Shown: one piece after another, positions 5,498 through 60,802 of the stretch | Position numbering within the stretch: the first letter of the stretch is position 1 | How the letters are laid out: every line of letters starts with the position of its first letter | From: Botryllus schlosseri | Taxonomy: Eukaryota | DNA length: 64,000 bases | Assembly (NCBI GenBank): GCA_051294905.1 | Contig: CM119372.1 | Span: forward strand, 14,138,001 to 14,202,000 | Reading direction: 5' to 3' | The notes under the pieces: generated by a model | Databases searched by the model: none | Seen by the model: only the letters and a program-made list of their open reading frames with translations | What the model was told of the DNA's origin: nothing | Position numbers and translations under genes: made by a program

Positions 5498-5557
5498 ATC
5501 TTTAAATCGCTAGAGACGCTAACTAAGCGATAGTTCACTCAATTTGAACGACTCAAG

Positions 5558-6105
5558 TAGGGTTGTGTTTAAAATAAAAATCAATTTAAAACAAACATGT
5601 TTAAAACAAAGCCCTTGTTTAAAACATGTTTTTTCCTAAGTCATGACGCCACACATATTCAATTGTGACGTCATAGTGGATTGATATTCCCAATTGAAAA
5701 TATAGGGTAAATATAGCTCCTTTGACGAAATAGGCTTCCAATCCCTGTCATATACGGAACAAAAATAACTTTAACCACGACTAAATTGTCATGCAGCATT
5801 TTTACGGTCGGTTGTAGTCATCATCAGAACATTCATTTCGTAACAATGATCTATATCTACGAACTATAGCTGTTTAACCGACTATTTCGAGGGCTCCAAC
5901 CATCCCATATCCTATATGTCGGCTATATCGGGTGGTAATCGTCGTCCGTAGGCTCATCCAACATGTTTTTGTAAATTATTTACGCAATTATGGCATAATT
6001 ATACAACTTGATAAAACACAATTTAAAGGCCTTTGTTTAAAATACCGTTTAAACATGTTTTTAACAAAAAATTTCAAACAACCATTTGTTTTACATGCAA
6101 TCCGA
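5558..6105. mobile_element. hAT-like MITE, same family as 4285-4654, opposite orientation
   Basis: Left end TAGGGTTGTGTTTAAA, degenerate right end; perfect TSD GACTCAAG; internal similarity to 4285-4654 and to a fragment at ~24600-24791. Confidence 0.8.
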
Positions 6106-13500: not shown

Positions 13501-14721
13501 ATGGATCGGAATACGAATAAAATGCAAAGCGAACGATACGCAACAGCGTTAAGGAGAAACACTCCTAGACCAGCAGTACATCACCACAGGCCGAGATCAC
13601 TATTTCTTAGAGTGCCTGAGGATGCAAAATATGAAGAAATATGGGACGATCTCTGCGAAAACGAGATAGCCAAACGCTACATCGACAAAATCGAATCCCT
13701 CTGGGAAATGAGAAGGGGAATGTACATCATGTCCTTCTTCAAAAACAAAAACGGCTCAAAAACCAGAGACGCTCTATACGCACAAATAGAGAAACAAGGC
13801 CTAGAAGGCCATAGCTTCAGATATATACGGATGGAACTTCCAAGACCACCAGCCACCCATCTCATAGCAAGCGGAATACCGACAGAAACGGAACCACCAT
13901 CCGTAAGACGAGATATAAACAGCCAAGGCTTCGGCACAGTAGTAGCTCTAACCAGAGTATACAGAAAAAACACTCGAATCTACAATGGGCGAACCAACAT
14001 ATGGGTCGAATCCTTCGATAAGGATAAAATGCCTTCGATTATTTACATCGACGGTTACCCATGCCAAATCAGAACCGCTGAAGACATCTATAAAAAGAGA
14101 TGTTACCTCTGTAACGAGGAAGGCCACGTGGCAAGAGAATGTCAGAGAAAAAACGAGGAAAACAAAAACGAAGAAAACATCGAAACAGATGCAGGCAAAA
14201 ACACAGAAGCCAAAAAATTACCAGAAGAAAACAGAATCAGACTCGGCACTACGAATGACGTCAGACTTGAGCAACCTAGTAACGATAGCCAAAACAACGG
14301 GGCGATATGCGACTGGTTCGTACAAGTCGGAAAAGCCAGAGCGAAGGAAAACAAACGTGTTCATGCGCTCAAAAACAGCAAAGAAACGGAGATAACTTCG
14401 AAACCCAGGAACCAACTACCAAAACCGAAGGTAGGCCAAACAAGAGCACCAATGGACATAGAAGATAGCCCTGCCTCGTCACACATACAGGAAAGGCAAG
14501 GAGACTCGAATCCACGAGTCAGCTCAGAAACCGAACCTTTTGATGACCATAACGAAACGATTATAGACCAAGACTCGCTGGTATCAGAATCTAACAAAAG
14601 AGCCCGAGGGTCGTCCAGCAACGCCAGTGCTGAAACAATATCAGAGAAGAAAACAAAACATGACAGCACAGACGGCTACGATACCGACCTATCGCTATCG
14701 CCAGACAACTCAAAGAAATAA
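13501..14721 (+). CDS. LINE ORF1 protein (nucleic-acid binding, CCHC zinc knuckle), 406 aa
   Basis: CYLCNEEGHVAREC knuckle, preceded by an RRM-like region (IYNGRTNIWV) and followed by a low-complexity charged tail; lies directly upstream of ORF2. Confidence 0.88.
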   Translation: MDRNTNKMQSERYATALRRNTPRPAVHHHRPRSLFLRVPEDAKYEEIWDDLCENEIAKRYIDKIESLWEMRRGMYIMSFFKNKNGSKTRDALYAQIEKQGLEGHSFRYIRMELPRPPATHLIASGIPTETEPPSVRRDINSQGFGTVVALTRVYRKNTRIYNGRTNIWVESFDKDKMPSIIYIDGYPCQIRTAEDIYKKRCYLCNEEGHVARECQRKNEENKNEENIETDAGKNTEAKKLPEENRIRLGTTNDVRLEQPSNDSQNNGAICDWFVQVGKARAKENKRVHALKNSKETEITSKPRNQLPKPKVGQTRAPMDIEDSPASSHIQERQGDSNPRVSSETEPFDDHNETIIDQDSLVSESNKRARGSSSNASAETISEKKTKHDSTDGYDTDLSLSPDNSKK

Positions 14722-17700
14722 TGAAAATCAAAGTAGCCTCGATCAACGTAAACGGACTTTCAAATAGACTGAACGATTTAGAACAGTACATACTCAAATC
14801 GAACCCGGATATACTGCTCATACAAGAAACCCACAGAATCGACAAAACAGCCGCGATGGAATGGGCTGAAAAACTGGGATTCACTATACACCTCAACTCG
14901 AAAAGCAAAAGAAGGCAATTCGACGGCACAGCCATAATGACGAGGAAGGACTGCCAAGGTAAAATCCTTTCACATACTATTATCATAGAAAACAGGGCCC
15001 AATGCCTCCTAATCAGACTAGACCAATGTCCAATAGCTGTCCTGAACGTTTATGTCCCATCCGGACAATCAGGCCCAACCCGAAAAAATAGAACTGACTT
15101 CCTGACCGCGCTAAAAGAATATATCAATGAAATCGATGACTCCATAATTATGGGAGGTGACTTTAATACCATATTAGACAAAAAAGATACGAAAGAAAAA
15201 AGGAGCTTCGAAATTAGAAATGACACAAGAATACTCCAAGAAATAGTATCCCAATCCAATATGGTAGACATCTTTAGACAAAAATATCCCAAAGTCGAAA
15301 TATTCACCCACGTGACTGCCAAAAGCGCCAGAAGAATTGACAGAATTTATGTAACAGAAGAAATAGCTGATGACGTCACGCATTCGGGTCACGAAAATAA
15401 CAACGTAGCAGATCACATAAGCCCCTCCATGACCCTCAGACTCCAACCAGCAACCAAATGGAACAAGAAAAAATGGAAATGTAATAAAGATCTGTTATCA
15501 GACAAGATATACAGAGAAATCATAGCCAATTTTGTCAATACGGAGGAAGCCAATCTAGACAAGCGCGAATCACTCCAAGAGTGGTGGGACGAACTAAAAA
15601 GAAAGATCGCTAACCTAAGCAAAAGGTATGAAATAGATAAGAGAAAAAAGACCGACCCGAGCCTAAAATACCAAAAAGTAAGAGGAAAACTTACGATGCT
15701 AACCCGCTCTGATAATCTTGAAGGAGAAAGAAACTCTCATCGATCGCTGTGGGCGCAGTTCCGAAAAAGAACGAAACAAACCGACATGAAGGAGCTACAA
15801 ATAGACGACGGGACAATAACAACAGACAAGTCCAAGATCGCTAACCATGTCAAATCCTTTTACTCAGAGCTCTGGACGCGCCACCGGATAGACAACACCG
15901 AACAGCAGGCCGGATACATAGCAGAATACGAACCGAACCCGACCCAGCAACATGCGCCTGGAATACAACCGTCGGTACGAAAAGAGGAGGTACTGGAAGC
16001 CCTCAAGTCCATGAACAAAGGGAAATCACCAGGGCCAGACGGCCCTACGGTAGAATTTTATATCACGGTATGGAAAACAATTGGCAGCAAATTAACGCAA
16101 ATTATAAACAACGCAATACTATTCGGAAATATTCCACAAAGCTGGAACGAGGCCAGAATAACCTTGATCCACAAAGGGAAAGAAAAAACAAACATTAAAA
16201 ACTGGAGACCGATATCATTACTGAATATAGATTATAAGATTATGGCTAAAATTCTAAATTCCAGATTATCCAAAGAGATCGTGGACTACATCTTTGAATC
16301 ACAAAAAGCAGGTATCCCTGGCAGACAAATGGACTCCATCCTCAACAACATCCGAGCAACACTGCGTTACTATAAAGAAAAGCGAACAGAAGGATACCTG
16401 ATGACAATATACGCCAAAAAAGCCTTCGATAAGGTAGACCACTGCATGTTGTTTAAAATTCTTGGAAAACTGCCCATCTCCGCACAGACCCTAAATGTCA
16501 TACGGGCAATATACAACAAACCGATGGCTACGATAGAGATAAACGGCCAACAAATAGCCAACATACCATACACGAGAGGCATCAGACAAGGATGCCCTCT
16601 CAGTATGACGCTATACGCCATCAGCGCAGATCCTATGGCCCGTAGAATCAACAACAACAACTCGATAAGAGGAATACGTATTGGAGGAATGTACCACAAG
16701 ATCGACCAATTCGCCGATGACATCACCCTATACCTATCCGACATAGACTCAATAACGCAAGTGCTAAGAGAATACTCGAGCCTGTACCAAGCCACTGGGC
16801 AGGAAATCAATACCGAAAAAACCGAGATCCTACCCATGAACCCTAAATCCCACCAACGACTAAAAGATTCCAGGCACGCCCAGTTCGCAAAAACAAAAAT
16901 TAAAATCCTCGGAATCCACTACGGGGAGGATGCGAATGGAACAAATCATGACAACCTCATAAAAGAAATAAGAAAGCAGGCCGCCAACATCAAATCAAAA
17001 AAGCTATCATGGATCGGGAAAATACAGGCAATCAAGGCATACATAATGACAAAAATAACTTACATATACTACAATATTCAGATCACCGAACAACGAAGAA
17101 AAGAACTGGAAAGGATAATCTACAACATCCTGTGGAGTCCGGAAAACTTGGAGCAGAAATCGAGAATCACTCTAATTAGACCCAAACAGCACGGGGGAAT
17201 AGGGTTCCCGGACGTGGCCAGCACAATACATGCCAGGAACGCCAAGCGCATACAAGAGATCGAATCTATTACAACACCCAGTGAGATATGGCACGCGGAA
17301 GCAATCCATAACATGGGGACCAGGGTGAGGTCTATAAACAATAACCTCTATAACAACTTATATACCCACAGATACGCGCCCTCCCGAGACTGGAAGAAGG
17401 AAATAGACTCATACGAGTCACTGAGAGGAGAAAACACACAAACGTGGAAACTGACCCAAAAAGAGATATACGTCGCACTAATTCGAACCAAAACGCAACA
17501 TGATGACCAAGAAACACCAAATTGGAAGCAAATATGGTTATACGAAGAGGCAATCAAACATCAAATATCAAATATTCAACGGGTAATATCCTACAGAATG
17601 AACACTGAGGCATACTTTTCAGGTGCAAGAAAAAACCAATCTGGATGGGCCAAGAGAAAAGACCAGGTCCTCAAAAACGATTGTAAATTCTGCCGTAAAA

Positions 17701-18014
17701 ACCACGATACCATGTATCACATCTTCAACGCATGTCCAATTTATAAAAAGATATTCTATATCGTCAGGGCGGACATCGAGGACGTAATCGGAAACATCAT
17801 CAACGTGTCCATAGAAGAGATTTACCGAAACATCTACACGGGACCACATAAGAAGATCATCATCACAACCTTCATGAATATGAAGACCGAAATATGGATA
17901 TGGAAGATGACGCTCGATAAGAAAAATGAATACGCAGAAGACGCGAACACCGAAATCGAAAACATAAGACGACGCCTATTATCGAAAACCAGACGACAGC
18001 AAAACAGAAGTTGA
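14721..18014 (+). CDS. LINE ORF2 protein: apurinic-like endonuclease, reverse transcriptase, C-terminal CCHC; 1097 aa
   Basis: EN motifs SINVNGL, LIQETH, NVYVP, GGDFN, RIDRIY, ADH; RT motifs KSPGPDG, WRPISLLNIDYKI, KAFD, GIRQGCPLS, FADD; CKFC..H....C at the C-terminus. Confidence 0.95.
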   Translation: MKIKVASINVNGLSNRLNDLEQYILKSNPDILLIQETHRIDKTAAMEWAEKLGFTIHLNSKSKRRQFDGTAIMTRKDCQGKILSHTIIIENRAQCLLIRLDQCPIAVLNVYVPSGQSGPTRKNRTDFLTALKEYINEIDDSIIMGGDFNTILDKKDTKEKRSFEIRNDTRILQEIVSQSNMVDIFRQKYPKVEIFTHVTAKSARRIDRIYVTEEIADDVTHSGHENNNVADHISPSMTLRLQPATKWNKKKWKCNKDLLSDKIYREIIANFVNTEEANLDKRESLQEWWDELKRKIANLSKRYEIDKRKKTDPSLKYQKVRGKLTMLTRSDNLEGERNSHRSLWAQFRKRTKQTDMKELQIDDGTITTDKSKIANHVKSFYSELWTRHRIDNTEQQAGYIAEYEPNPTQQHAPGIQPSVRKEEVLEALKSMNKGKSPGPDGPTVEFYITVWKTIGSKLTQIINNAILFGNIPQSWNEARITLIHKGKEKTNIKNWRPISLLNIDYKIMAKILNSRLSKEIVDYIFESQKAGIPGRQMDSILNNIRATLRYYKEKRTEGYLMTIYAKKAFDKVDHCMLFKILGKLPISAQTLNVIRAIYNKPMATIEINGQQIANIPYTRGIRQGCPLSMTLYAISADPMARRINNNNSIRGIRIGGMYHKIDQFADDITLYLSDIDSITQVLREYSSLYQATGQEINTEKTEILPMNPKSHQRLKDSRHAQFAKTKIKILGIHYGEDANGTNHDNLIKEIRKQAANIKSKKLSWIGKIQAIKAYIMTKITYIYYNIQITEQRRKELERIIYNILWSPENLEQKSRITLIRPKQHGGIGFPDVASTIHARNAKRIQEIESITTPSEIWHAEAIHNMGTRVRSINNNLYNNLYTHRYAPSRDWKKEIDSYESLRGENTQTWKLTQKEIYVALIRTKTQHDDQETPNWKQIWLYEEAIKHQISNIQRVISYRMNTEAYFSGARKNQSGWAKRKDQVLKNDCKFCRKNHDTMYHIFNACPIYKKIFYIVRADIEDVIGNIINVSIEEIYRNIYTGPHKKIIITTFMNMKTEIWIWKMTLDKKNEYAEDANTEIENIRRRLLSKTRRQQNRS

Positions 18015-42940: not shown

Positions 42941-44036
42941 GCTTATAATTGACGGACGTCAAGTTTTATGAGTCGAATTTATCCTTTTTTGGTAATGATG
43001 AAACCTGATCAAGGTGAAAATATGGCACTGTCTGAATTCAGATTATAAGCAGAGGTGGTCAGTAACGAAGTACTTGTTCAAAGTACTCAAGTAGATTTCC
43101 TCTATTTCTGGTACATACTCAAGTAGGTCTTTTTTCGCTACTTTTACTTCGTATATTTTGTGAACTACTTACTTACTTTTCGCTATCTTCAGTTTGTCAA
43201 GTACAAGTAGTTTAATCCCCCAATAAGAAATATAGGCTAAGGAATTTTGGGGCTGTTGTCACGTAGTACCAAACCAACACATAATTTTCATAAAAGTCAT
43301 GTAATACGCAGAATTTTCGTTGCGCTTCGCGCACAGTAGATATGGAGTGACAAATATGTTTCAACCAAAGTATCGCTGAATATAATTTAGATACTGGGCG
43401 GCTGCGTGGTTCCGTTCACACCGCATTGTCGCCTGTATCAAATATTTCATCACAGTAAGTATGGTCCCCCATAACATTTGAAACTACAGTATCGCAATCT
43501 AGCAATTACCTATTATACCTAGCAGCCCATGACGTGTCCTAATCTGAAAAAGTGAACTTTGACTTTTAACGTTAGACCTGTTTTGGCAGACTACCGTTGA
43601 AACTAATTGAACAAAAGACATGAAATATCTTTTCCGCTTTTTAGAACTAGTATTCGTATTTTTCTTTCAATTTACGAGTATTATACGTTGAGTTCTAATT
43701 ATAGTTTCAGTTCTTTTGTCTGGAGAACATACATGTTGAAGTATAAAAGCAAGTGTAGTGATGCCGTATATTTTCCGAGAATAAAGCTATACACTATATG
43801 GGATTTTTACAATCTGTCATACTTTTAATTGACGTATACTAATCGTGCAAAGTGTTAAAGCCGTATCCGATACAACTTCTCTTCGGCTGAACTAGAGGCC
43901 GTATAATATGGGGGAGGGCGCCATGCCATGATATTCTCTAAAACGGGGTGTTCGAGTAAACAAAGAATTAGTATCGCATTTCCATATCAATCCCACGATG
44001 TTTACGACGGCTTATTCTGTCAAAAACTGACACCTC

Positions 44037-47000
44037 AGTAGTAGTATACGGGTCATTTATACCCCCACCAATAGTCATCGAGTATTTGATCACGTGACAT
44101 CTGTTAGCCAATTAGAATGCAGAACGAAGTGGGCGTGGTTCCAATACGAGAGAGGTTTGGGTTGTGCGAGAGATGGCATAGTTCCAGTCCAGTAACGCTG
44201 AGATATTTATTACGTCATGCTTGCGTAAGTTGATTACCTTCAATATGATTGCGTATTGCAGCATGTTCATGATTACGTCATATGCGTAGTTGATTACTTT
44301 AGTTATTTCGAGAGCGTCTTTGCTTAGTTCCAGTAATGCTGAGGTATGATTACGTCATGATTGCGTCTAGTTCCAGTCCAATAACACTGAGAAATATTTA
44401 CGTCATTATGATTGTGTAGTTGTTCATGTTCATGATTACGTCATATGCGTGGTTCCAATACGAGTGAGGTTTTGGTTGTGTGAGAGATGGCATAGTCCCA
44501 GTCCAGTAACGCTGAGATATTATTACGTCATTATTACGTAGGTTGATTACCTTCAATATGATTGCGTATTGCAGTTAAAGCATGTACAGTATTGATTACG
44601 TCATATGCGGAGTTGATTACTTTAGTTATTTCGAGAGCGTGATTGTTTAGTTCCAGTAATGCTGAGATATGATTACGTCATGATTGCGTCTAGTTCCAGT
44701 CCAATAACACTGAGAAATATTTACGTCATTATGATTGCGTATTGCAGTTGAAGCATGTTCAGTAATGATTACATCATATGCCTAGTTGATTACTTTAGCA
44801 ACGCTGAGATATGATTACGTCAATATTGCGTTGATTGCCTTTGTTATTGCAGTTGAAGCAAGTGCAAGGCAATATATAACGTGTAATATTTATTACATGA
44901 TTATTCGCTGTACGCTGTAGATTGAATATGTCAAAGATTACTGCTAATGATATATACGTCATAATAGATCGTATTGACCCGATGAACTGGTACATGATTT
45001 CAATGATTATTAAAAATAATTTTAATAATATTGTTTATGAATTCGTTTGAATACGTTCACTGTTATAATCTATATGATTTCAATGATTATTAAAAATAAT
45101 TGAAATAAATCTCACAAAGTAATAATATAAAATTTGGCTAATATTGTGAATATCTAATAATCGTGAAAATAGCAAGTATCTCATGTTGATGAAAAAAATC
45201 AGCCCACGTTGTTAGAGAACCAAAACATGATTTTAATATGTTTTAAATATTCCATTTTTTAAAAATATTATTACATTGGTTCTAACTTTGGAATAATAAT
45301 TATTATATTGTTTTCATTATTCATCGAAATCATTGTCGCTTATAACGGTGAACATCTTTTTAATAATATTGTTGCTTTGTAAATATCTTATTGATTTTAG
45401 TTAAATTATCGATTATCTTGTGTTGTTGATGAATTAGTTTGTACAAAAGACGTTCACTGTTATAATCTACATGATTTGAATTTTAATAAAACAATTTTCG
45501 GTTTATTCGCAATCATATGCTCATGTATGCGAAACTGGTATTGCTTTTACATCGCAAATCTAAAAAGGGATTCTAATATCGAGAAAATGTGCCAGGATCC
45601 CAAGGGAGCTCTATGCGTTGTTCTGAACGATTAGTAAATGTCGAGAAAGTATGTTAGGATCTCAAGGGAGCTCTACGCGTTGTTTTGTTGTGAATATGTT
45701 ATCATTGCGAAATTAGCAATTATTTCGTGTTGTTGATGAAAATATTAAGCTTACGTTGTTATAAGCACCAAAACATGATTTAAATATGTTTAAAATATTC
45801 CAGTTTTTAAATAATATTACTTTGGTTCTAACTTTGGAATAATAATAATTAATATTAATAATATTTTTTCAATATTCATTGAAGTCATTGTAGCTTATAA
45901 CGGTGAACATCTTTTGTACAGCAAGCTCCAAGTTTAATTAGAATTAGAGCAACACAAAATTCCAACACCTCGCAACTCTCATGACAGTGCATCGTATCAT
46001 TACACAATATTAAACTTCATTCAATAATCAACATTTAATTGTGACGTCATAAATTCGTATTTTGAATTTTTTGTGATGAGATGAGATTGTTTGATATGCA
46101 AGTCGCGCATGAAGCAGATCTGTCCACCCTGTACTATAGTAATGTGTTAAATGTGTACTCAAATGTATATTGTGAATAAGACCAGTTACGATCCAGCTAC
46201 CGTGTTTGTTAACCCATTGTGAAATGTCTGACGCCATATCTTCACCGTCACACTTATACTCAACGCGAACGCTATATTGTAGCTTAATTTCTTTATGTAG
46301 TACGTGCAAACATATGATGTGTCTCTCTCAATTTACTTTCAAAATTCATATGATACAACAGCATGGACTCTGAATGCCACTTGCAACATATGTATATGTA
46401 TTTGTATGATAATATTAGTAACAGCTGGCCTCTATAGGGAATTAACTGAATACATTCTTTGCCGATGGATAGTGTCGCAGTACCTTACCGTATGCACTAC
46501 AAAACGCTATCATTTTACAGTATTAATGAGACACAAACCAAAGTAAAATTAACAAAAAATTGACTAATATTATGAATATCTTATGATTTTGAGTTAAATT
46601 AGCCATTTTCTTGTGTTGTTATTGTTTCACTATCACTGATTATTCTAATAATATTGTTGCTTTGTGAATATCGTATCAATTTTTTGTTAAATTATCAATT
46701 ATCTTGTGTTGTTGATGAAAATAATTCGCTTGTATAAAATACGTTCACTAATATAATCTACAGGATTTCAATGATTATTAAAAAATAAGCTAATGCAAGT
46801 TTCCAGAATGCTGATGCTGGCTATGCTATTGGAGCCTTTTCAAATAGAATACGCAGTACGATTATCGATGGTGGATGCAAAACAATCCTAATTCTCAACA
46901 AATTTTAATTGTCTCGGAATCATACCTATTGCGATATCAACTCTCCGCATTTTGTTGTATTTAGGGCTATTGCACAAGCTATCTCTAATATGCTGCAATA

Positions 47001-50000
47001 TAGACAGGTTCAAACTTGTCTAGGGTATTCACTTCCCGTCAACTAGCTTTTCAAGACGCATTAATAAGCGCGCGTATTTAATTACCTAATCGTTGGATGA
47101 ATATTCCTGGCAGGCATAGATGTCCCCAGGGAACCGAGCTAACTTCGCTTCTATTCTTTTTACATTGTTTGCAAAGCACGGGTATTTTGTGATTCCATTA
47201 GACTTCAATGGTTCTAGAATACTAAATTAATGAGAGTTGAATAAACCGTCAATTAATTTAGCATAAAGCATATGATATTCATATTACTTAGAGCTTACGT
47301 CGTTGAACAACCCTGATATGATCATACAGCGAAAGTATAGCCCTAAATAGCGGTAATATCTCCCAAGCATAAAAATAACGTGGTCGGAATGTACGTTTAT
47401 TGCAAATTTATCTCTAAACAGAATGATCTGTAGCTTGTCGCATTCGAATTACTGAGCAGAATTGACATAGAACTATTAAGCAAAGCTGAAACATCTTCAC
47501 TTCAGTTATCATTCCCTTGAGACTACTAGTTATAGCAGAGGCAGACAAACTGTGATTTGCGGTTGTAGCACTTCAATGATTTCATGTGCGTTTCGCCATA
47601 TTGTTAAAGAAGTTTAACCTGATTATATATTAATGCATTTATAGCGTATTAGCAATATGCGAATGGTGGCTGTGGCGCTACAGGGTTCAAAATTAGCAAT
47701 TGAACTCTCGAATTGAACCCGATCATCAATCAATGACAAATCATTGTGCTCAACGCTATTTTTATGTGGTTCATTGATTCACAACTTTTACTGATCCACA
47801 AAGCACTTACGTTAGTCTTAAAACCTTCGCTGAACCACAAATTTTCGCTGAGTCATAAAACAAAAAATCTGGCAAAATATACATTCAACTACACATCTAA
47901 TTCTTTACTATAGTACAGGAGTGGGCAGAGCTGCTTCTTGCGCGAGTCGCATATCAAAAATCTTATCTTTAAAAGAACCACAACACAAAAATCCAACATA
48001 TGGATTTATTACGTCTCAAGGAAATGTAGGCTATCGAATGAAATTTATTATTGTGTGATGATAGGATGTGCAATTGTGCATACACGAGGGTTCTAATTCC
48101 AATCTAATTTGGAAAAACTATGTAGCTCTAAGTCAAATTCTAATCTAGTTCTATTCAACCTGTTTCAGTTACACACGCTTTTCAGAGACACTGCGAGCTT
48201 CACGGATTTTTAAATTTTCAAAATTAGGATTGATCGATAAATATGATACTATTTATCACTTGTATAAATATCACTGTGATATCAATCCAAGCTTATGCGG
48301 CTTTGTAATAATTGGTTGTTTAGCAAAATCAATATTATGCTCAAATTATATCAGATATCGCATTGAATATAGCTAATCAAATTTTTATTACATATTAGTA
48401 GCTGCAGTCGGATTTCAACATAACGACCAATTCCGATGCACATGCTACGTTTTCGAAACGACTACGTTACTATTCGATAGCTGGACATATCAGTATTGTC
48501 TTCTAATGACTCGAGTCATTACAATCCTGCTAATGGATTTCTAATTTAAACTTTGACTTGGACTTATCGATCAAGTAGGTAGTGGGGGTACCTGGTTTTG
48601 TTACCAGCCTCGAGGCTATATTCTTTGGCAGCGATGAGGCTATTTATGTTCATCGCTCAGCACTTGACTATGGCGATGTGTATTTAGCACTGTGTATTGA
48701 TAATTACTTGCTTCCGAGAAATAAATAACATTCATTATACGTTAGATGATACTTTCCACAGATATTCTATTATGTGTCTTGAGACTACAGCGAGTTGATA
48801 ATATTAATGCGTACACTTTCAAGAAATAAGGACGTTGCTAACATTCAGATTTTGCGTAAATTTCGCGTGATCAACTATGTACGATTTTTGTGTATTTCAG
48901 ACTATGTATGTTCATGTTCACGAAGACTGCGGTATCGCATGGATAAATGCATCATCGCTAATAAATTACTTGAATGCGACTCGATAACATTTATCCCTTG
49001 TAACGTACTCAAACATGATATTAGGTGTATTTAAGACTATTTATGTTCCTGAGATCTTTGATAGCGCAATGATTCGGTATGATTTCTATATTATTCCACT
49101 CTCGTTATTGGACTGCGGTGTGACGCTGAACCTATCTCGATGCCCGGGCTTCCGCATTAACTTTTTTCGATTTCTTCTGCCTTATGTAGATTTAACATAA
49201 GGAAAGTTATTTCACTCATAAAATTTGAAATACGTATTTGCTCGAGTTAAAGCCATAACGCTTGGAGTGAAATTTTACGAGGTTTTCGTTAATATTCAAC
49301 TGGGCTAATTTCGAAATGTAAATTGAAAAACTCAAATATCGCATAGTAGGACTTCGCAAATTTTCGATATATTTTTGCTATTTTTTCATGGTGACAAGTC
49401 ATTCGGAACGGTGAAATGCATTATAGGAAATAGATGAAACTGGTTCAATTCATCAAGACCCCTGAAAAAAGTACATTGGATTTCAACATTTTATTAGCAG
49501 GTAATCGAAATACCACAAACTGGGCTAACCTTCGGAGTTGTTAAGTAAAGAAGTACTCGTACTTCTTCGGAGTACCCAATACTCTCAAGTCCTTATTATA
49601 TTGGAGTGTTTCAACTTCATGATAGTTATAGTATTAAGCAGAAATATACCTGGAGTACTAATGTTTTACTTACTAGGAAATGACTACTTCTGTCTTATTT
49701 TAAAGGATTCCTCGCTCGACGCGAAATTTTATTAGGTTTTGAATAATATCCAACATGTAGGTTCACTTTGAAGGGTACTTCGTAAAACTCAAATATTGTA
49801 CAGTGAGAGCTCGCAAATTCTCGATGTATTTTTTGGTATTTTTATTGCGGTAAGTCATTCTGCAGCGCGAAAATGCATCGTAGGATATAGATGAAACTGA
49901 CACCGCTCACCAAGACCACTGGACCACTGAAAAAGTACATTTCAACATTTTAGTAGCAGTAAATTCCTAGTAAAGTATAAGAAGTGATGATTTCCGAGTG

Positions 50001-53000
50001 AGTTAAAAAGTAAGTATTGAAGGTATAGTTTGGTCGAAAACCGAAAACTCTGAAATAGAAGTAGATGCAGTGTAAAAAGTTAATCACTTGATTAAGTATA
50101 GCGCAAGCGGACCAAACCTATACTTGAGTACTCCAAAATGTACAAGTACTTCGCTATGGACTCCCTCCACGTAAAAAGTGACTAGGTTTTAGACTACTTT
50201 ATCGGTACTTGACAGTTTCAGTTTTAGATAAAATTTGGAATAAAAACTAGCTCATTCACTCACTTGGAAATCTCTTCTTTAACCTGTACTTGAGCGTAGC
50301 AAGTAAATCTCATTTATTATTAATTCTACACGTACACTTGACCATATTTTATGACTTACATAATTACTTTTCACTATATTTGAAGTCAAGTCTGTCAAAT
50401 AGCAGTATATGTTACGATGAGCTTATATTCGTTCTGTTTGATCATCTTGACTAACGATATTCACGCGGCGAGCTCTCCAGTGATAGCCTTGGGACTTGGA
50501 ACAGTGTTATATGACATCATAGCGACACGAGGTTACGACAGTTTAGAATTAGCTACCTTACGACACCAAATTTCGTTAGTTCATCTCCACCTTCAAATAT
50601 TGTGTTATACAAATATAGTGTATACGCAACAAATACATATATGGCTTTGTTGCTGCAATCTTCAAAAAAAGTACTTCCCTCAGTAAGCAATTTCTCGTAG
50701 GCTATGCATATGCATACAAACGAGGACAGTTACATCAATGAGTGGTACCTTGTTGTATTAAGTAGCTAGTAATTAGTGCATGTAAGTCCGCAGCTACTGT
50801 TCAAGACCTTTTACGCGTTTTTGCCAAGCATCCTCGTAAGGACAGACAGTCCCAATCAGCTAATGTAAGTGTGTGTGTGTAGGCCTATGTATGTATGAGG
50901 GGTCTTATGCCGGTTGACGAATGAAGTTGGTCGTCTATTCTATTCCGAAATAATCAAGTTAGTGGTTTTTAACAGGACCTGACCTCATAGAAACTTCAGT
51001 AGAATAACTTATAACTCCTCATGTTTACTCAAGTAAATCTAATTTGATAATCATGTACTGAATCTTAATTTTCAAACGAGTTCAAATTTAACTCTAACTT
51101 ATGAGATTAAATATAATAACTTTTCACGTTGCAGCGTATTTTACAGCATGAGCCAAGTGATTTCATAATTAACACAAGATAATTAAATGAATTTCTAGAG
51201 GATTATAAGATATTCGTGTCATCCTCCTTCGTATATCATAAAAGAATACCTACTGCAGTCGATTTGTAATTATTTGCGCTGTGTTTGATCAACTCAATCA
51301 TGTTGCAGTGTTTTAATAACGAAACTCTTTTACAGCATAAACCAAATAATTTCATAATAAACACAAGCTAATTGAATGAATTTACTCAAATGTAGTATAC
51401 CGCGCTGATGAGATTAATTATAACATACTTATCATGTTACAGTGGTTTTTCAATAACTAAACTCATTTACAGCATAAGCAGAGTAATTTCATAATAAACA
51501 TAAAATAACTGCTGTCGATGATTTGTACTAATTTGTGGCGTGTACAATTAACTCAAGCAGCTCTAAAACATAGGAAGCAGGGCGATGGGTATTCGTTGAG
51601 TTGAATAAATATAAAAAATATTTCCGCGCCCTTCTAGGTTGTAGGGTTAGGAATAATTAGGTTTAGTAGGGCGCGGAAATATTTTTTATGTTTATTCAAC
51701 TCAACGAATACCCATCGCCCTGCTTCCTATGTTTTAGAGCTGCTTGAGTTAATTGTACACGCCACAAATTAGTACAAATCATCGACAGCAGTTATTTTAT
51801 GTTTATTATGAAATTACTCTGCTTATGCTGTAAATGAGTTTAGTTATTGAAAAACCACTGTAACATGATAAGTATGTTATAATTAATCTCATCAGCGCGG
51901 TATACTACATTTGAGTAAATTCATTCAATTAGCTTGTGTTTATTATGAAATTATTTGGTTTATGCTGTAAAAGAGTTTCGTTATTAAAACACTGCAACAT
52001 GATTGAGTTGATCAAACACAGCGCAAATAATTACAAATCGACTGCAGTAGGTATTCTTTTATGATATACGAAGGAGGATGACACGAATATCTTATAATCC
52101 TCTAGAAATTCATTTAATTATCTTGTGTTAATTATGAAATCACTTGGCTCATGCTGTAAAATACGCTGCAACGTGAAAAGTTATTATATTTAATCTCATA
52201 AGTTAGAGTTAAATTTGAACTCGTTTGAAAATTAAGATTCAGTACATGATTATCAAATTAGATTTACTTGAGTAAACATGAGGAGTTATAAGTTATTCTA
52301 CTGAAGTTTCTATGAGGTCAGGTCCTGTTAAAAACCACTAACTTGATTATTTCGGAATAGAATAGACGACCAACTTCATTCGTCAACCGGCATAAGACCC
52401 CTCATACATACATAGGCCTACACACACACACTTACATTAGCTGATTGGGACTGTCTGTCCTTACGAGGATGCTTGGCAAAAACGCGTAAAAGGTCTTGAA
52501 CAGTAGCTGCGGACTTACATGCACTAATTACTAGCTACTTAATACAACAAGGTACCACTCATTGATGTAACTGTCCTCGTTTGTATGCATATGCATAGCC
52601 TACGAGAAATTGCTTACTGAGGGAAGTACTTTTTTTGAAGATTGCAGCAACAAAGCCATATATGTATTTGTTGCGTATACACTATATTTGTATAACACAA
52701 TATTTGAAGGTGGAGATGAACTAACGAAATTTGGTGTCGTAAGGTAGCTAATTCTAAACTGTCGTAACCTCGTGTCGCTATGATGTCATATAACACTGTT
52801 CCAAGTCCCAAGGCTATCACTGGAGAGCTCGCCGCGTGAATATCGTTAGTCAAGATGATCAAACAGAACGAATATAAGCTCATCGTAACATATACTGCTA
52901 TTTGACAGACTTGACTTCAAATATAGTGAAAAGTAATTATGTAAGTCATAAAATATGGTCAAGTGTACGTGTAGAATTAATAATAAATGAGATTTACTTG

Positions 53001-56000
53001 CTACGCTCAAGTACAGGTTAAAGAAGAGATTTCCAAGTGAGTGAATGAGCTAGTTTTTATTCCAAATTTTATCTAAAACTGAAACTGTCAAGTACCGATA
53101 AAGTAGTCTAAAACCTAGTCACTTTTTACGTGGAGGGAGTCCATAGCGAAGTACTTGTACATTTTGGAGTACTCAAGTATAGGTTTGGTCCGCTTGCGCT
53201 ATACTTAATCAAGTGATTAACTTTTTACACTGCATCTACTTCTATTTCAGAGTTTTCGGTTTTCGACCAAACTATACCTTCAATACTTACTTTTTAACTC
53301 ACTCGGAAATCATCACTTCTTATACTTTACTAGGAATTTACTGCTACTAAAATGTTGAAATGTACTTTTTCAGTGGTCCAGTGGTCTTGGTGAGCGGTGT
53401 CAGTTTCATCTATATCCTACGATGCATTTTCGCGCTGCAGAATGACTTACCGCAATAAAAATACCAAAAAATACATCGAGAATTTGCGAGCTCTCACTGT
53501 ACAATATTTGAGTTTTACGAAGTACCCTTCAAAGTGAACCTACATGTTGGATATTATTCAAAACCTAATAAAATTTCGCGTCGAGCGAGGAATCCTTTAA
53601 AATAAGACAGAAGTAGTCATTTCCTAGTAAGTAAAACATTAGTACTCCAGGTATATTTCTGCTTAATACTATAACTATCATGAAGTTGAAACACTCCAAT
53701 ATAATAAGGACTTGAGAGTATTGGGTACTCCGAAGAAGTACGAGTACTTCTTTACTTAACAACTCCGAAGGTTAGCCCAGTTTGTGGTATTTCGATTACC
53801 TGCTAATAAAATGTTGAAATCCAATGTACTTTTTTCAGGGGTCTTGATGAATTGAACCAGTTTCATCTATTTCCTATAATGCATTTCACCGTTCCGAATG
53901 ACTTGTCACCATGAAAAAATAGCAAAAATATATCGAAAATTTGCGAAGTCCTACTATGCGATATTTGAGTTTTTCAATTTACATTTCGAAATTAGCCCAG
54001 TTGAATATTAACGAAAACCTCGTAAAATTTCACTCCAAGCGTTATGGCTTTAACTCGAGCAAATACGTATTTCAAATTTTATGAGTGAAATAACTTTCCT
54101 TATGTTAAATCTACATAAGGCAGAAGAAATCGAAAAAAGTTAATGCGGAAGCCCGGGCATCGAGATAGGTTCAGCGTCACACCGCAGTCCAATAACGAGA
54201 GTGGAATAATATAGAAATCATACCGAATCATTGCGCTATCAAAGATCTCAGGAACATAAATAGTCTTAAATACACCTAATATCATGTTTGAGTACGTTAC
54301 AAGGGATAAATGTTATCGAGTCGCATTCAAGTAATTTATTAGCGATGATGCATTTATCCATGCGATACCGCAGTCTTCGTGAACATGAACATACATAGTC
54401 TGAAATACACAAAAATCGTACATAGTTGATCACGCGAAATTTACGCAAAATCTGAATGTTAGCAACGTCCTTATTTCTTGAAAGTGTACGCATTAATATT
54501 ATCAACTCGCTGTAGTCTCAAGACACATAATAGAATATCTGTGGAAAGTATCATCTAACGTATAATGAATGTTATTTATTTCTCGGAAGCAAGTAATTAT
54601 CAATACACAGTGCTAAATACACATCGCCATAGTCAAGTGCTGAGCGATGAACATAAATAGCCTCATCGCTGCCAAAGAATATAGCCTCGAGGCTGGTAAC
54701 AAAACCAGGTACCCCCACTACCTACTTGATCGATAAGTCCAAGTCAAAGTTTAAATTAGAAATCCATTAGCAGGATTGTAATGACTCGAGTCATTAGAAG
54801 ACAATACTGATATGTCCAGCTATCGAATAGTAACGTAGTCGTTTCGAAAACGTAGCATGTGCATCGGAATTGGTCGTTATGTTGAAATCCGACTGCAGCT
54901 ACTAATATGTAATAAAAATTTGATTAGCTATATTCAATGCGATATCTGATATAATTTGAGCATAATATTGATTTTGCTAAACAACCAATTATTACAAAGC
55001 CGCATAAGCTTGGATTGATATCACAGTGATATTTATACAAGTGATAAATAGTATCATATTTATCGATCAATCCTAATTTTGAAAATTTAAAAATCCGTGA
55101 AGCTCGCAGTGTCTCTGAAAAGCGTGTGTAACTGAAACAGGTTGAATAGAACTAGATTAGAATTTGACTTAGAGCTACATAGTTTTTCCAAATTAGATTG
55201 GAATTAGAACCCTCGTGTATGCACAATTGCACATCCTATCATCACACAATAATAAATTTCATTCGATAGCCTACATTTCCTTGAGACGTAATAAATCCAT
55301 ATGTTGGATTTTTGTGTTGTGGTTCTTTTAAAGATAAGATTTTTGATATGCGACTCGCGCAAGAAGCAGCTCTGCCCACTCCTGTACTATAGTAAAGAAT
55401 TAGATGTGTAGTTGAATGTATATTTTGCCAGATTTTTTGTTTTATGACTCAGCGAAAATTTGTGGTTCAGCGAAGGTTTTAAGACTAACGTAAGTGCTTT
55501 GTGGATCAGTAAAAGTTGTGAATCAATGAACCACATAAAAATAGCGTTGAGCACAATGATTTGTCATTGATTGATGATCGGGTTCAATTCGAGAGTTCAA
55601 TTGCTAATTTTGAACCCTGTAGCGCCACAGCCACCATTCGCATATTGCTAATACGCTATAAATGCATTAATATATAATCAGGTTAAACTTCTTTAACAAT
55701 ATGGCGAAACGCACATGAAATCATTGAAGTGCTACAACCGCAAATCACAGTTTGTCTGCCTCTGCTATAACTAGTAGTCTCAAGGGAATGATAACTGAAG
55801 TGAAGATGTTTCAGCTTTGCTTAATAGTTCTATGTCAATTCTGCTCAGTAATTCGAATGCGACAAGCTACAGATCATTCTGTTTAGAGATAAATTTGCAA
55901 TAAACGTACATTCCGACCACGTTATTTTTATGCTTGGGAGATATTACCGCTATTTAGGGCTATACTTTCGCTGTATGATCATATCAGGGTTGTTCAACGA

Positions 56001-59000
56001 CGTAAGCTCTAAGTAATATGAATATCATATGCTTTATGCTAAATTAATTGACGGTTTATTCAACTCTCATTAATTTAGTATTCTAGAACCATTGAAGTCT
56101 AATGGAATCACAAAATACCCGTGCTTTGCAAACAATGTAAAAAGAATAGAAGCGAAGTTAGCTCGGTTCCCTGGGGACATCTATGCCTGCCAGGAATATT
56201 CATCCAACGATTAGGTAATTAAATACGCGCGCTTATTAATGCGTCTTGAAAAGCTAGTTGACGGGAAGTGAATACCCTAGACAAGTTTGAACCTGTCTAT
56301 ATTGCAGCATATTAGAGATAGCTTGTGCAATAGCCCTAAATACAACAAAATGCGGAGAGTTGATATCGCAATAGGTATGATTCCGAGACAATTAAAATTT
56401 GTTGAGAATTAGGATTGTTTTGCATCCACCATCGATAATCGTACTGCGTATTCTATTTGAAAAGGCTCCAATAGCATAGCCAGCATCAGCATTCTGGAAA
56501 CTAGCATTAGCTTATTTTTTAATAATCATTGAAATCCTGTAGATTATATTAGTGAACGTATTTTATACAAGCGAATTATTTTCATCAACAACACAAGATA
56601 ATTGATAATTTAACAAAAAATTGATACGATATTCACAAAGCAACAATATTATTAGAATAATCAGTGATAGTGAAACAATAACAACAGAAGAAAATGGCTA
56701 ATTTAACTCAAAATCATAAGATATTCATAATATTAGTCAATTTTTTGTTAATTTTACTTTGGTTTGTGTCTCATTAATACTGTAAAATGATAGCGTTTTG
56801 TAGTGCATACGGTAAGGTACTGCGACACTATCCATCGGCAAAGAATGTATTCAGTTAATTCCCTATAGAGGCCAGCTGTTACTAATATTATCATACAAAT
56901 ACATATACATATGTTGCAAGTGGCATTCAGAGTCCATGCTGTTGTATCATATGAATTTTGAAAGTAAATTGAGAGAGACACATCATATGTTTGCACGTAC
57001 TACATAAAGAAATTAAGCTACAATATAGCGTTCGCGTTGAGTATAAGTGTGACGGTGAAGATATGGCGTCAGACATTTCACAATGGGTTAACAAACACGG
57101 TAGCTGGATCGTAACTGGTCTTATTCACAATATACATTTGAGTACACATTTAACACATTACTATAGTACAGGGTGGACAGATCTGCTTCATGCGCGACTT
57201 GCATATCAAACAATCTCATCTCATCACAAAAAATTCAAAATACGAATTTATGACGTCACAATTAAATGTTGATTATTGAATGAAGTTTAATATTGTGTAA
57301 TGATACGATGCACTGTCATGAGAGTTGCGAGGTGTTGGAATTTTGTGTTGCTCTAATTCTAATTAAACTTGGAGCTTGCTGTACAAAAGATGTTCACCGT
57401 TATAAGCTACAATGACTTCAATGAATATTGAAAAAATATTATTAATATTAATTATTATTATTCCAAAGTTAGAACCAAAGTAATATTATTTAAAAACTGG
57501 AATATTTTAAACATATTTAAATCATGTTTTGGTGCTTATAACAACGTAAGCTTAATATTTTCATCAACAACACGAAATAATTGCTAATTTCGCAATGATA
57601 ACATATTCACAACAAAACAACGCGTAGAGCTCCCTTGAGATCCTAACATACTTTCTCGACATTTACTAATCGTTCAGAACAACGCATAGAGCTCCCTTGG
57701 GATCCTGGCACATTTTCTCGATATTAGAATCCCTTTTTAGATTTGCGATGTAAAAGCAATACCAGTTTCGCATACATGAGTATATGATTGCGAATAAACC
57801 GAAAATTGTTTTATTAAAATTGAAATCATGTAGATTATAACAGTGAACGTCTTTTGTACAAACTAATTCATCAACAACACAAGATAATCGATAATTTAAC
57901 TAAAATCAATAAGATATTTACAAAGCAACAATATTATTAAAAAGATGTTCACCGTTATAAGCGACAATGATTTCGATGAATAATGAAAACAATATAATAA
58001 TTATTATTCCAAAGTTAGAACCAATGTAATAATATTTTTAAAAAATGGAATATTTAAAACATATTAAAATCATGTTTTGGTTCTCTAACAACGTGGGCTG
58101 ATTTTTTTCATCAACATGAGATACTTGCTATTTTCACGATTATTAGATATTCACAATATTAGCCAAATTTTATATTATTACTTTGTGAGATTTATTTCAA
58201 TTATTTTTAATAATCATTGAAATCATATAGATTATAACAGTGAACGTATTCAAACGAATTCATAAACAATATTATTAAAATTATTTTTAATAATCATTGA
58301 AATCATGTACCAGTTCATCGGGTCAATACGATCTATTATGACGTATATATCATTAGCAGTAATCTTTGACATATTCAATCTACAGCGTACAGCGAATAAT
58401 CATGTAATAAATATTACACGTTATATATTGCCTTGCACTTGCTTCAACTGCAATAACAAAGGCAATCAACGCAATATTGACGTAATCATATCTCAGCGTT
58501 ACTAAAGTAATCAACTAGGCATATGATGTAATCATTACTGAACATGCTTCAACTGCAATACGCAATCATAATGACGTAAATATTTCTCAGTGTTATTGGA
58601 CTGGAACTAGACGCAATCATGACGTAATCATATCTCAGCATTACTGGAACTAAACAATCACGCTCTCGAAATAACTAAAGTAATCAACTCCGCATATGAC
58701 GTAATCAATACTGTACATGCTTTAACTGCAATACGCAATCATATTGAAGGTAATCAACCTACGTATTAATGACGTAATAATATCTCAGCGTTACTGGACT
58801 GGGACTATGCCATCTCTCACACAACCAAAACCTCTCTCGTATTGGAACCACGCATATGACGTAATCATGAACATGAACAACTACACAATCATAATGACGT
58901 AAATATTTCTCAGTGTTATTGGACTGGAACTAGACGCAATCATGACGTAATCATACCTCGGCATTACTGGAACTAAGCAAAGACGCTCTCGAAATAACTA

Positions 59001-59263
59001 AAGTAATCAACTACGCATATGACGTAATCATGAACATGCTGCAATACGCAATCATATTGAAGGTAATCAACTTACGCAAGCATGACGTAATAAATATCTC
59101 AGCGTTACTGGACTGGAACTATGCCATCTCTCGCACAACCCAAACCTCTCTCGTATTGGAACCACGCCCACTTCGTTCTGCATTCTAATTGGCTAACAGA
59201 TGTCACGTGATCAAATACTCGATGACTATTGGTGGGGGTATAAATGACCCGTATACTACTACT
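44037..59263. mobile_element. 15,227-bp fully palindromic non-coding element with Polinton/Maverick-like termini
   Basis: Position i pairs with 103300-i from the termini to the centre; arms 44037-51632 and 51668-59263; termini AGTAGTAGTATACGGG / CCCGTATACTACTACT; perfect 6-bp TSD CACCTC (44031-44036, 59264-59269); mirrored short ORFs in the ORF track; no ORF over ~93 aa. Confidence 0.85.
44134..44880 (+). repeat. Subterminal tandem array (~314-bp period) built from TTACGTCA-containing subunits; mirrored at ~58420-59166
   Basis: CGTGGTTCCAATACGAG at 44134 and 44448; ten TTACGTCA octamers counted. Confidence 0.85.
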
Positions 59264-59304
59264 CACCTCCTTGGATGAAGTAATATGAATCAAGCTCTCT
59301 ACAC

Positions 59305-60802
59305 CAGCGGTTCTCAACCGGGGGTCCGCTGACCCCTAGGGGTCCGCGAAGCAATTTCAGGGGGTCCGCGAGACCTCTAAATTTTTTAAATGGTTGATAA
59401 CCTAATTTTTATTTTATTTTTTATTTTGAGAAAGCATGAGGCAGTTTCGCACCACAACTGCTAAAATCTCATGACTCATATCATCATCATAATCGTCTGA
59501 CATGAGCTATCGTTGCGTGGAAATTCATTTTCATTGCTCATTTTCCAATAACCTGCTGATACAAACATATTGCTGTTTAGAGACGTTTTGTTGGGGTTTG
59601 GGGATAAAATAAAAATATGGAGATAGTAACGTCAATAAGGGTGACGTCGTTAATGTCTGCAAAACCTTCTCGATTTGAAGTTGTCTTGTCAGTCTCATCA
59701 AATTAGTGAACATGAACAGTCGTTTGAAATGAAGATCTCCGAAATGTTTCCCTAATTTTTCCCAATGCAGGGATTGAAGCCTCGCCACGCGAAATCCATT
59801 TTATCCTGTGATATACCGCATAACCACTATTGGAACAGTTTATTGGAGTTACAGAACTTGAATATACAATTGAAAAGTATATACATATTGAAATGACAAG
59901 GCTATCGACGGCTGACACTCGTCATAAATCGGACAATGATATACCTGCTCTTAAAGCTCGGCTATTAGTCAGATTTGGCGCATTCTTATCGCGGATGCCC
60001 TATCGACAAGGCTGTTTTTTTAGGAACAAGGAGTGTTTCGTTGCTATCAAAGCATTACGCTCCAGCCCTGAAATTCATATCACCAGTTATATTGGTATGC
60101 AGCCTTGTTTTGTTAATGTTCAATTGTTCATGGTCGAAAATGTTTGCTGGTCAATATATATGTAAACCCGAACAGAACAAGTTGTTTCATAACAGGCTTT
60201 CTAAGGTTAGAAAACTTGAATCCATTCTTTGGCGAATGAAACTTGTCTATGCTTTTAGATTAGGATTTCACTTTGACGGTAGAAACTCTCTGCGGGCCGA
60301 TCAAAATGCCGTCGCGGACCGAATCCGGCCAGCGGTTCGTATGTTGCCCGTCCTTACGGTAGATGCTGGGCGTGATATGTTCATAAAATATATGTTTCCT
60401 CATTTTGGTGCCATAAATGTTGCGATTACACCAAAAGTATCATCGGAAGCGTTATGCGTTAATATTGAATTAGCCGCCATCTATATTTGTGGAAATGGTT
60501 TTTGGCACTACTCGTTCATATCAAAACGAAGACGAGGATTTCCAAGACACGACCACGTACTTCAAGAAATACATAAGCAAAATTAGCTTCGAAATAATAA
60601 AAGTCTACCAATTTCTACATAGATAGTATGATGTTATTTTCAAGAAAAATCATTTATTTTGCTGTTTCTCACAAGCCTCGAGTTCATATTTGCACAAAAC
60701 AGATGAAGGTTGCACCATAATTGAACTAAAACTTGAGGGGGTCCGCGAGGGTCCGTGACGGTCATAAGGGGTCCGCGAAGCCAAAAAGGTTGAGAACCAC
60801 TG
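59305..60802. mobile_element. hAT (Charlie-like) non-autonomous element with transposase debris
   Basis: TIRs CAGCGGTTCTCAACC / GGTTGAGAACCACTG; perfect TSD CTCTACAC; GGGGTCCGCG subterminal repeats; minus-strand remnants YHRIKWISRG (~59790) and LVLFGFTYI..QTFSTMN (~60150). Confidence 0.9.

Follow-up and report, generated by a model that had tools for sequence, protein, structure and literature searches.

A family of long non-coding palindromes with Polinton-type ends in Botryllus schlosseri, probably satellites of a resident autonomous element

What kind of mobile element consists of almost nothing but the two arms of an inverted repeat? The question is raised by a 15.2-kb palindrome at positions 44037-59263 of a stretch of 64,000 nucleotides (nt) of the Botryllus schlosseri genome (positions 14,138,001 to 14,202,000 of the forward strand of contig CM119372.1, in the 495-Mb, 219-contig assembly GCA_051294905.1), which we refer to as the window. 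The palindromic copy in the window is here called W, and other copies (C11, C13, C4a, C14 and so on) go by the labels of their contigs. The evidence set out below indicates that W is probably one copy of a heritable, palindromic and non-coding family of satellites of the Polintons or Mavericks, elements that are defined by a family-B DNA polymerase of the protein-primed type (pPolB) and a retrovirus-like integrase (PMC5499653), and that this family is mobilised in trans by an autonomous helper resident in the same genome. Each mechanistic detail of this satellite reading is offered with less confidence than the reading itself.

A repeat search delimits a left arm (44037-51636, forward strand) and a right arm (51664-59263, reverse strand), both 7,600 nt long, on either side of a 27-nt centre. 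A base-by-base comparison of the left arm with the reverse complement of the right one gave 10 mismatches and no indels (99.87% identity). The outer 2.8 kb account for eight of the mismatches, and the other two are no more than 30 nt away from the centre. The 7,596-bp arms and spacer of about 35 bp reported in a preliminary description of the locus are the identical structure, trimmed at the innermost mismatch at 51633. A 7.6-kb inverted repeat at this level of identity is far beyond chance. The 27 nt at the centre (51637-51663) form a non-palindromic loop of TTAGG-like units flanked by TTTCCGCGCCC and GGGCGCGGAAA. The element ends in AGTAGTAGT, its left terminus reading AGTAGTAGTATAC... (44037-44049, forward strand) and its right terminus ...GTATACTACTACT; the AGT reiteration is threefold in W and twofold in other subfamilies and in the helper. 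Immediately outside both ends stands the hexamer CACCTC (44031-44036 and 59264-59269), a perfect 6-bp target-site duplication (TSD) which, like the (AGT)3 termini, had already been recognised in the preliminary description. With this duplication and these ends W is a discrete mobile insertion. Reiterated triplets at the ends are the hallmark of an initiation that is protein-primed and involves jumping or sliding back, as in adenovirus and phi29, and it is on account of the AGT-reiterated ends, together with a 6-bp duplication of the Polinton-integrase type, that we read W as a satellite replicated and inserted by a helper.

Just inside the terminus lies a 33-mer with CACGTG and CCAAT motifs (44080-44112, forward strand), which is invariant across the family and a candidate cis-acting site. 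It is followed by a subterminal tandem repeat of 323 bp in 1.9 copies (44133-44741, forward strand; mirror copy at 58559-59167), in which ACGTCA-type motifs are abundant. The arms appear devoid of genes. Twenty-eight stop-to-stop open reading frames (ORFs) of at least 50 amino acids (aa) overlap one arm of W, the longest having 100 aa, and a Pfam scan of 27 of them, the ORF left out (44031-44195) being one that begins in the flank, returned no match at E<=0.01. An Rfam scan found nothing at E<=0.1 and ARAGORN no tRNAs. The lack of protein-coding capacity noted at the outset is thereby borne out. The insertion itself sits within another high-copy repeat (43800-44036 and 59270-59400); in run X1 the summed word depth is 30,913 for 43800-44073 and roughly 700-65,000 across bins of the arm.

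W is a member of a sizeable family. Its terminal 864 nt have at least 44 scored matches in the genome (the best 40 of 171 candidates having been scored), which are mostly paired in opposite orientations 10.7-32 kb apart. All nine further elements that were fetched proved to be near-full palindromes with arms of 6.3-8.0 kb, 99.65-99.95% alike within a copy, while between copies the identity of the terminal kilobase drops to 84%. The preliminary description had expected other palindromic copies bounded by different 6-bp duplications, and such duplications, perfect and all different, were found in nine of the nine elements with both ends (CACCTC, CTTGCC, CTAGAT, GTAAGG, CACGTG, GTCAAC, AGTATG, TGCGAC and ATAATA). 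This count excludes a tenth element, C14, in which the left end is truncated, and the whole-element comparison leaves out the loci C15:22.39M (32 kb), C8:4.62M and C16:3.64M as well as the arms of a subfamily of about 90% identity. Across the genome the 33-mer occurs 46 times in forward and 45 times in reverse orientation at no more than two mismatches (91 in total, 73 exact), with a reversed control giving 0 + 0. All copies have one and the same centre: a GC clamp (TTTCCGCGCC... / ...GGCGCGGAAA) encloses 27-44 nt of non-palindromic loop in which the TTAGG unit occurs 3-5 times. The clamp pattern was found at 28 genomic sites against none for its control. These sites correspond to about 24 elements, four loci having two sites each; beyond them C14 (with one clamp mismatch) and a divergent copy, L054, also carry the centre. 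The kilobase adjoining the centre has at least 105 scored matches from the best 40 of 1,305 candidates, and among these are about 14 loci of about 90% identity that lie outside elements bounded by the 33-mer. They make up a divergent palindromic subfamily (for example C11:7143900-7145200, which is L054, and about 13 other loci) that has a homologous loop and GC clamp and even retains the loop core TAGGGTTAGG; its ends were not picked up by the genome search with the 33-mer. As only 40 of the 1,305 candidates were scored, the family may be considerably larger than about 24 elements, or the 24-26 copies identified here.

Some copies are recent, to judge by their resemblance. W and C11 stand at different loci and are near-identical, with 5-13 differences over 7,580 positions per arm pair. 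In another such pair (C15:244607/C15:259838 and C5:2585517/C5:2600742) an element's left and right termini are unlike at position 9 (AGTAGTATA... vs AGTAGTATT...), an asymmetry common to both copies. The truncated element C14:14658677-14673751 (L044/L045) shows 32 differences between its two arms, of which the left is closer to the C13 lineage (42 differences, as against 81 to W) and the right closer to W (73 vs 84). C14 is a mosaic, which suggests recombination or conversion between different palindromic copies.

A palindrome of this size might also be a product of the assembly, through fold-back chimeric reads or mis-joined repeats. Four loci of 23-28 kb do contain two centres 8-12 kb apart (C2:17.02-17.05M, C4:27.23-27.26M, C8:4.62-4.65M and C16:3.64-3.67M), with a 100-N gap between repeated arm pieces in both of the two examined, and these look like false duplications introduced by the assembler or scaffolder at the palindrome. 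Contigs of the sequencing runs likewise offer no bridge. Twenty runs contain part of 43800-52000, none of those listed being an RNA run, and four contain half or more of its words. Four runs compared with the interval gave short Logan contigs only; by a 31-nt rule neither the centre nor a junction is bridged by any contig listed, the one at the left junction (43964-44064) having 28 nt on the arm side. A joint between 50190 and 51680, on opposite strands, is present in three runs. About 3% of a raw single-cell RNA run contributed 82 reads, few in number and mostly from unrelated repeats; 68% of these reads continue into unlike sequence. Even so, the chance that the palindromes are artefacts is virtually nil. 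They occur at 24 or more loci on many contigs, and this explanation is excluded because so many copies stand independently, each between unique flanks, with target duplications that are perfect and different in nine of nine cases; it is further opposed by the conserved centre loop and by arm polymorphisms common to copies at different loci.

The preliminary description supposed that autonomous elements encoding pPolB, integrase, ATPase, protease and capsid would share the end of W. An autonomous element that does share it was identified at C11:2511867-2529739 (L052/L053), a locus first found as a match to only the first 418 nt of the arm (88% identity), which starts with AGTAGTATTATAC and runs on into genes. 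It is about 17,873 bp long, with the TSD CAAAAC and a terminal inverted repeat (TIR) of 242 bp at 98.3% identity. Its 1,310-aa ORF displays by eye family-B polymerase motifs of the DxxSLY-, KxxxNSxxG- and DTDS-type, and its nearest ESM-Atlas clusters carry PF03175 (score 0.97, 17 hits). Pfam hmmscan of this ORF reported no polymerase family even at E<=5, a PDB sequence search had no hit at E<=0.01, and a genome profile search with PF03175 gave 0 matches, a blank that carries no weight as the control, too, was detected in 0 of 14 genomes. The integrase (L053 1349-2404) is recognised by its rve domain (PF00665, E=2.1e-13) and Chromo domain (E=3.1e-10), and the ATPase by Pox_A32 (E=1e-5; 25.6 bits vs a cut-off of 22.8). 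A 443-aa ORF shows a weak DJR-like Pfam match (E=0.15) and an Atlas score of 0.98 to clusters with DJR-like_dom on 14-24% of their members, and we take it as a lead to a double jelly-roll capsid protein. A polymerase recognised by motifs and Atlas clusters, an rve integrase, a TIR of hundreds of base pairs, a 6-bp TSD and a length of 15-20 kb together identify L052/L053 as a Polinton that is autonomous, its genes for polymerase, integrase and ATPase being intact.

This helper is itself multicopy. Its polymerase has at least 35 genomic matches, 12 of them at 91% identity or more with uninterrupted frames of 1,296-1,314 aa. Eleven of the 12 lie inside elements bracketed by the 33-mer (about 17.8 kb), ten with both ends 17.3-17.9 kb apart, and none of the 28 palindrome centres falls inside a polymerase-holding element. 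Near its ends the helper bears cargo, namely ORFs with a Death domain (L052 675-983, +), of BIR/IAP type (L052 2115-2519, -), of UBC E2 type (L053 7304-7783, -; E=2e-48) and of the Bcl-2 family (L053 8276-8794, -; E=9e-20). The genome also houses two other families of pPolB, which are 65-67% and 61% identical to the polymerase of the helper (for example C16:14437283-14441161 and C1:23801822-23805703), with at least 23 scored copies, many of which have open frames of about 1,290 aa; no copy of either adjoins the 33-mer.

The relationship between palindrome and helper is concentrated at one end. Arm positions 1-956 (44037-44992, forward strand) and 1462-1605 (45498-45641) match the left end of the helper at 87-90% identity, and two short inverted scraps are likewise of left-end origin. 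The similarity extends past the 242-bp TIR of the helper and takes in the first 31 codons of the Death-domain ORF, while the right end of the helper matches arm 1-258 only. Thus both ends of the palindrome are of the helper's left-end type beyond the TIR, which is what copying back of a single end predicts, and with left-end-specific sequence in both arms W has the form of a self-complementary molecule derived from one genome end. It combines terminal cis sequences of the helper, an identical 33-mer and a 6-bp TSD with the absence of helper genes, in the manner of a non-autonomous derivative; in six arms searched by tblastn with all helper ORFs of at least 60 aa, nothing was found of the genes for the polymerase, integrase, ATPase and capsid. 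The preliminary description had seen in the palindrome one end of a (non-autonomous) Polinton copied back on itself. Here the proposal needs correction: recognisable Polinton sequence makes up only about 1-1.6 kb of each 7.6-kb arm. Three parts of the arm are conserved across subfamilies, namely its outer ~0.9 kb (84-95%), some repeat modules between 1.0 and 1.9 kb and a non-coding inner block of 2.3 kb adjoining the centre (arm 5031-7337, 49067-51373 on the forward strand; 93-94%). Arm 3.2-5.0 kb is subfamily-specific and includes a segment, present symmetrically in both arms (47500-48743, forward strand, in the left one), which is also found outside palindromes at 82-91% identity and is probably a nested unrelated repeat.

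W might be a foldback-type transposon of another superfamily that is Polinton-like only at its tips, as the long non-coding inverted arms with subterminal tandem repeats could suggest. This is barely conceivable when some 950 nt match a true Polinton left end at 87-90% and are accompanied by the same 33-mer, AGT-reiterated ends and a 6-bp TSD. An FB-like element would have arms made largely of tandem subrepeats and the ends and TSD of its own superfamily, whereas W has only the one 323-bp x1.9 repeat; Polinton-type ends, TSD and helper homology rule this candidate out. The common left-end kilobase also admits a different use, in which the host keeps the palindromes as sources of hairpin RNA (small interfering or PIWI-interacting RNA) that silence the autonomous Polinton. 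Read-through of a perfect 7.6-kb inverted repeat would yield long double-stranded RNA, the beginning of the helper's Death-domain gene is part of the common sequence, and a role for double-stranded RNA is proposed for dimeric 5' snapback genomes of adeno-associated virus (AAV) (PMC8235507). We nevertheless consider such domestication highly improbable, as recent transposition to new sites with fresh TSDs looks parasitic.

When did the palindrome form? Snap-back molecules that originate de novo have a variable turnaround, but here a homologous loop is present at 28 of 28 sites and in the divergent subfamily as well. As separate events would vary the turnaround, a single homologous centre in all subfamilies implies that the palindrome formed once and has been inherited since; on comparison of these centres it arose once in a distant ancestor and then diversified. 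The snap-back copying of one end that had been proposed for W is therefore supported in one respect, in that left-end sequence occurs at both ends as it predicts, and not in another: its centre being common to all subfamilies, the palindrome does not date from the insertion of W or from the time immediately preceding it. A single recent snap-back event as the origin of W is ruled out by this conserved centre and by the family of palindromic copies.

The conserved centre could be accommodated by another scheme, in which the replicon is an independent 7.6-kb linear molecule closed covalently by a hairpin at one end. It would be a hairpin-telomere satellite, and the palindromes of 15 kb would be its integrated unfolded dimers. 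In favour of it, every centre has a conserved non-palindromic loop with a GC clamp, doubling of its length would bring it to near-helper size, and the TTAGG units of the loop are telomere-like. The telomere repeat of the host is TTAGGG (3,741 forward and 7,693 reverse 30-mer matches, some of them near the end of contig C1), and six tandem units of TTAGG have only 25 genomic matches. We regard this scheme as quite improbable: the arms contain no resolvase, telomere-resolving or any other gene, direct evidence of a monomer is lacking, and the monomer would need to retain the inherited asymmetries between arms in the form of heteroduplex mismatches. So far, in the W/C11 pair, the loop also keeps a fixed orientation relative to the arm polymorphisms, which the scheme would not lead one to expect.

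These asymmetries lead to the question of how the arms have remained so alike. In an alignment of the eight arms of W, C11, C13 and C4a there are 114 two-state ungapped variable columns, of which 88 separate W/C11 from C13/C4a and are the same in both arms of each copy, 5 are symmetric within one copy, 16 are changed in one arm only and 5 are shared asymmetries. Thus 93 of the 114 columns are symmetric, as are the indels between lineages, and the arms of a copy differ at 3-10 positions as against 92-104 between lineages. A mutation arises in one arm, yet the differences are mostly symmetric, which points to strong concerted evolution of the arms. A different picture emerges over short times. 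Three near-identical pairs at different loci (W/C11, C15/C5 and C3/C1) display 8 arm-to-arm differences common to both members, 28 one-arm changes and 3 symmetric ones; in W/C11 the common differences and the loop are inverted together, as if C11 had inserted the opposite way round. Because arm differences are kept across transposition, both arms must be copied faithfully, and homogenisation, judged from these pairs, is episodic and does not occur at each cycle. Arm identity would be restored at intervals by re-copying from one arm or by hairpin or cruciform repair, or alternatively by chromosomal gene conversion.

The last of these routes is central to an alternative that accepts the same family but has it move only as plain double-stranded DNA via the integrase, with no hairpin intermediate and with the arms kept alike purely by chromosomal gene conversion from arm to arm, in the manner of large sex-chromosome palindromes. 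Inheritance of arm differences through transposition in all three near-identical pairs fits this, and local conversion could account for the symmetric private changes, of which there are one to two per pair. All 6 private one-arm changes of W fall in the outer 1.5 kb, which would agree with conversion of the inner part, although they may also be noise from polishing in a subterminal region rich in repeats. On the other side, one-arm and symmetric changes since the pairs split stand at 28:3, so that in-situ conversion appears slow relative to mutation, while 93 of 114 deeper differences are symmetric, and whole nested repeats and indels are symmetric too. On balance we judge it unlikely that conversion acting on plain duplexes is the full explanation.

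We therefore return to the satellite reading and to the mechanism it would entail. The terminal protein and pPolB of the helper would initiate at the two identical left-type ends, and its integrase would insert the 15-kb duplex, generating the 6-bp duplication; that helper enzymes mobilise the family in trans is suggested, circumstantially, by the recent copies and by co-residence with 11 helpers that have intact polymerase frames. The displaced strand of a full palindrome would snap back at once into a hairpin whose tip is a complete duplex origin. Such a full hairpin would be the limiting case of the panhandle or racket intermediate proposed for adenoviruses and, in the Kapitonov-Jurka racket model as outlined in 10.64898/2026.07.28.741278, for Polintons, and it might confer a replication advantage. 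By analogy with viral packaging, two left ends and a length near that of the helper (about 14.5-18.9 kb vs 17.7-18.0 kb) may serve encapsidation. The ancestral palindrome would have arisen once, by copy-back of a left-end fragment.

Several observations weigh against this reading. About 6 kb of each arm are without similarity to the helper at either the DNA or the protein level, so that the arm is not simply a copied-back half of a Polinton. Among the scored matches no autonomous copy has W-type ends, the best being 88% identical over 418 nt with its first ~45 nt differing at about a quarter of positions, and cross-mobilisation by the helper is for this reason an assumption; only the 33-mer is invariant between the ends of palindrome and helper. 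In the helper itself the capsid assignment is a lead only, and the adenain-type protease that had been anticipated was not detected by Pfam. A long read spanning a whole element was not seen, and four loci show the assembly trouble described above. Lastly, arm differences outlast transposition in three of three pairs, whereas a simple model of hairpin repair predicts automatic homogenisation.

The satellite reading can be carried further than we would ourselves commit to. In this extended form, which is unlikely as a whole, the family would be a long-lived satellite of a Polinton virus and in effect one self-complementary strand, replicated as a helper-primed snap-back hairpin, packaged in the helper capsid, possibly spreading between individuals or species and occasionally renewed by copy-back, its centre being the scar of a broken end healed by telomerase at the founding fold-back. 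Packaging in the helper capsid would explain both the two left ends and the helper-like length. The thought of spread arises because a third to a half (33-49%) of the 31-mers of 43800-52000 are also present in runs that carry the labels of three other organisms; one contig of organism B spans 45854-47946 with 14 differences, a near-match that may reflect either close kinship or horizontal spread.

Elsewhere in the window there is an apparently intact long interspersed nuclear element (13480-18014, forward strand), whose ORF1 encodes 413 aa with a CCHC zinc knuckle and whose ORF2 encodes 1,116 aa with endonuclease/exonuclease/phosphatase and reverse transcriptase domains.

If the satellite reading is right, several implications follow. 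Polintons are thought to replicate by protein priming through a single-stranded racket intermediate, a model of which we know of no test, and the palindromic family offers a natural probe of it: every member is a complete hairpin, there are some 24 or more copies, the helper is resident and the arm polymorphism is measurable. To our knowledge snap-back-type defective genomes have been met only as transient by-products of adenovirus and parvovirus infection; the family suggests that they can become heritable, diversifying mobile elements and that the virus-like transposons of animals have satellites of their own. On the practical side, 15-kb perfect palindromes break long-read assemblies, as the four loci with false duplications or gaps illustrate, and they will be misclassified by repeat annotation that looks for a coding core between short TIRs. 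In the open full-text literature (Repbase, subscription journals and supplements lying outside this scope) we found no description of a non-coding, fully palindromic Polinton derivative or of a family of these, and hence no earlier account of a non-autonomous Polinton that combines with snap-back architecture and has become heritable and evolves in concert. What this literature does describe are short terminal palindromes at the ends of virophages and polinton-like viruses, gene-bearing TIRs of about 2 kb in butterfly Polintons, and Tlr1 elements regarded as 'non-autonomous polintons'.

Autonomous Polintons are among the nearest known systems. A lizard element, for example, is 17,487 bp long with a 6-bp TSD and a 584-bp TIR (PMC3014272), and the features of the helper agree with those of such published Polintons. 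W resembles such elements in its TSD, in its 5'-AG...CT-3' ends with a short reiteration, in the approximately 1-kb left end in common and in its similar length; it differs in having no genes, in an inverted repeat that takes up the entire element, with 7.6 kb per arm where Polintons have a few hundred base pairs, and in an arm that is mostly non-Polinton. Foldback transposons, of which Tetris is reportedly an example, invite comparison by their architecture. With them, as represented by Drosophila FB (PMC6431247), W shares long inverted arms, little or no coding capacity and subterminal tandem repeats, but it has a 6-bp TSD, Polinton ends and a helper, and its arms are unique sequence, not mostly satellite-like repeats. 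The concerted evolution of the arms, which are more than 99.6% identical despite divergence between copies, recalls a quite different structure. The palindromes of primate sex chromosomes have arms kept alike across lineages by arm-to-arm gene conversion; those palindromes are immobile and gene-bearing, whereas the present family is mobile, non-coding and TSD-bounded.

The defective genomes of AAV and adenovirus provide a parallel to the proposed way of life. Snapback genomes of AAV are self-complementary and replicate with helper functions, as stated in PMC8235507; for adenovirus, PMC5033970 places the packaging domain just inside the left inverted terminal repeat and, citing Daniell 1976, mentions incomplete particles that contain left-end DNA. 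W would share with these genomes its self-complementarity from one genome end, two identical origins, a presumable dependence on a helper and, by analogy, a left-end bias that matches a left-end packaging signal. Yet the viral molecules arise anew in each infection, with variable turnarounds, and are not inherited, while the palindromic family has one conserved turnaround and is integrated in the germline, diversified and transposing.

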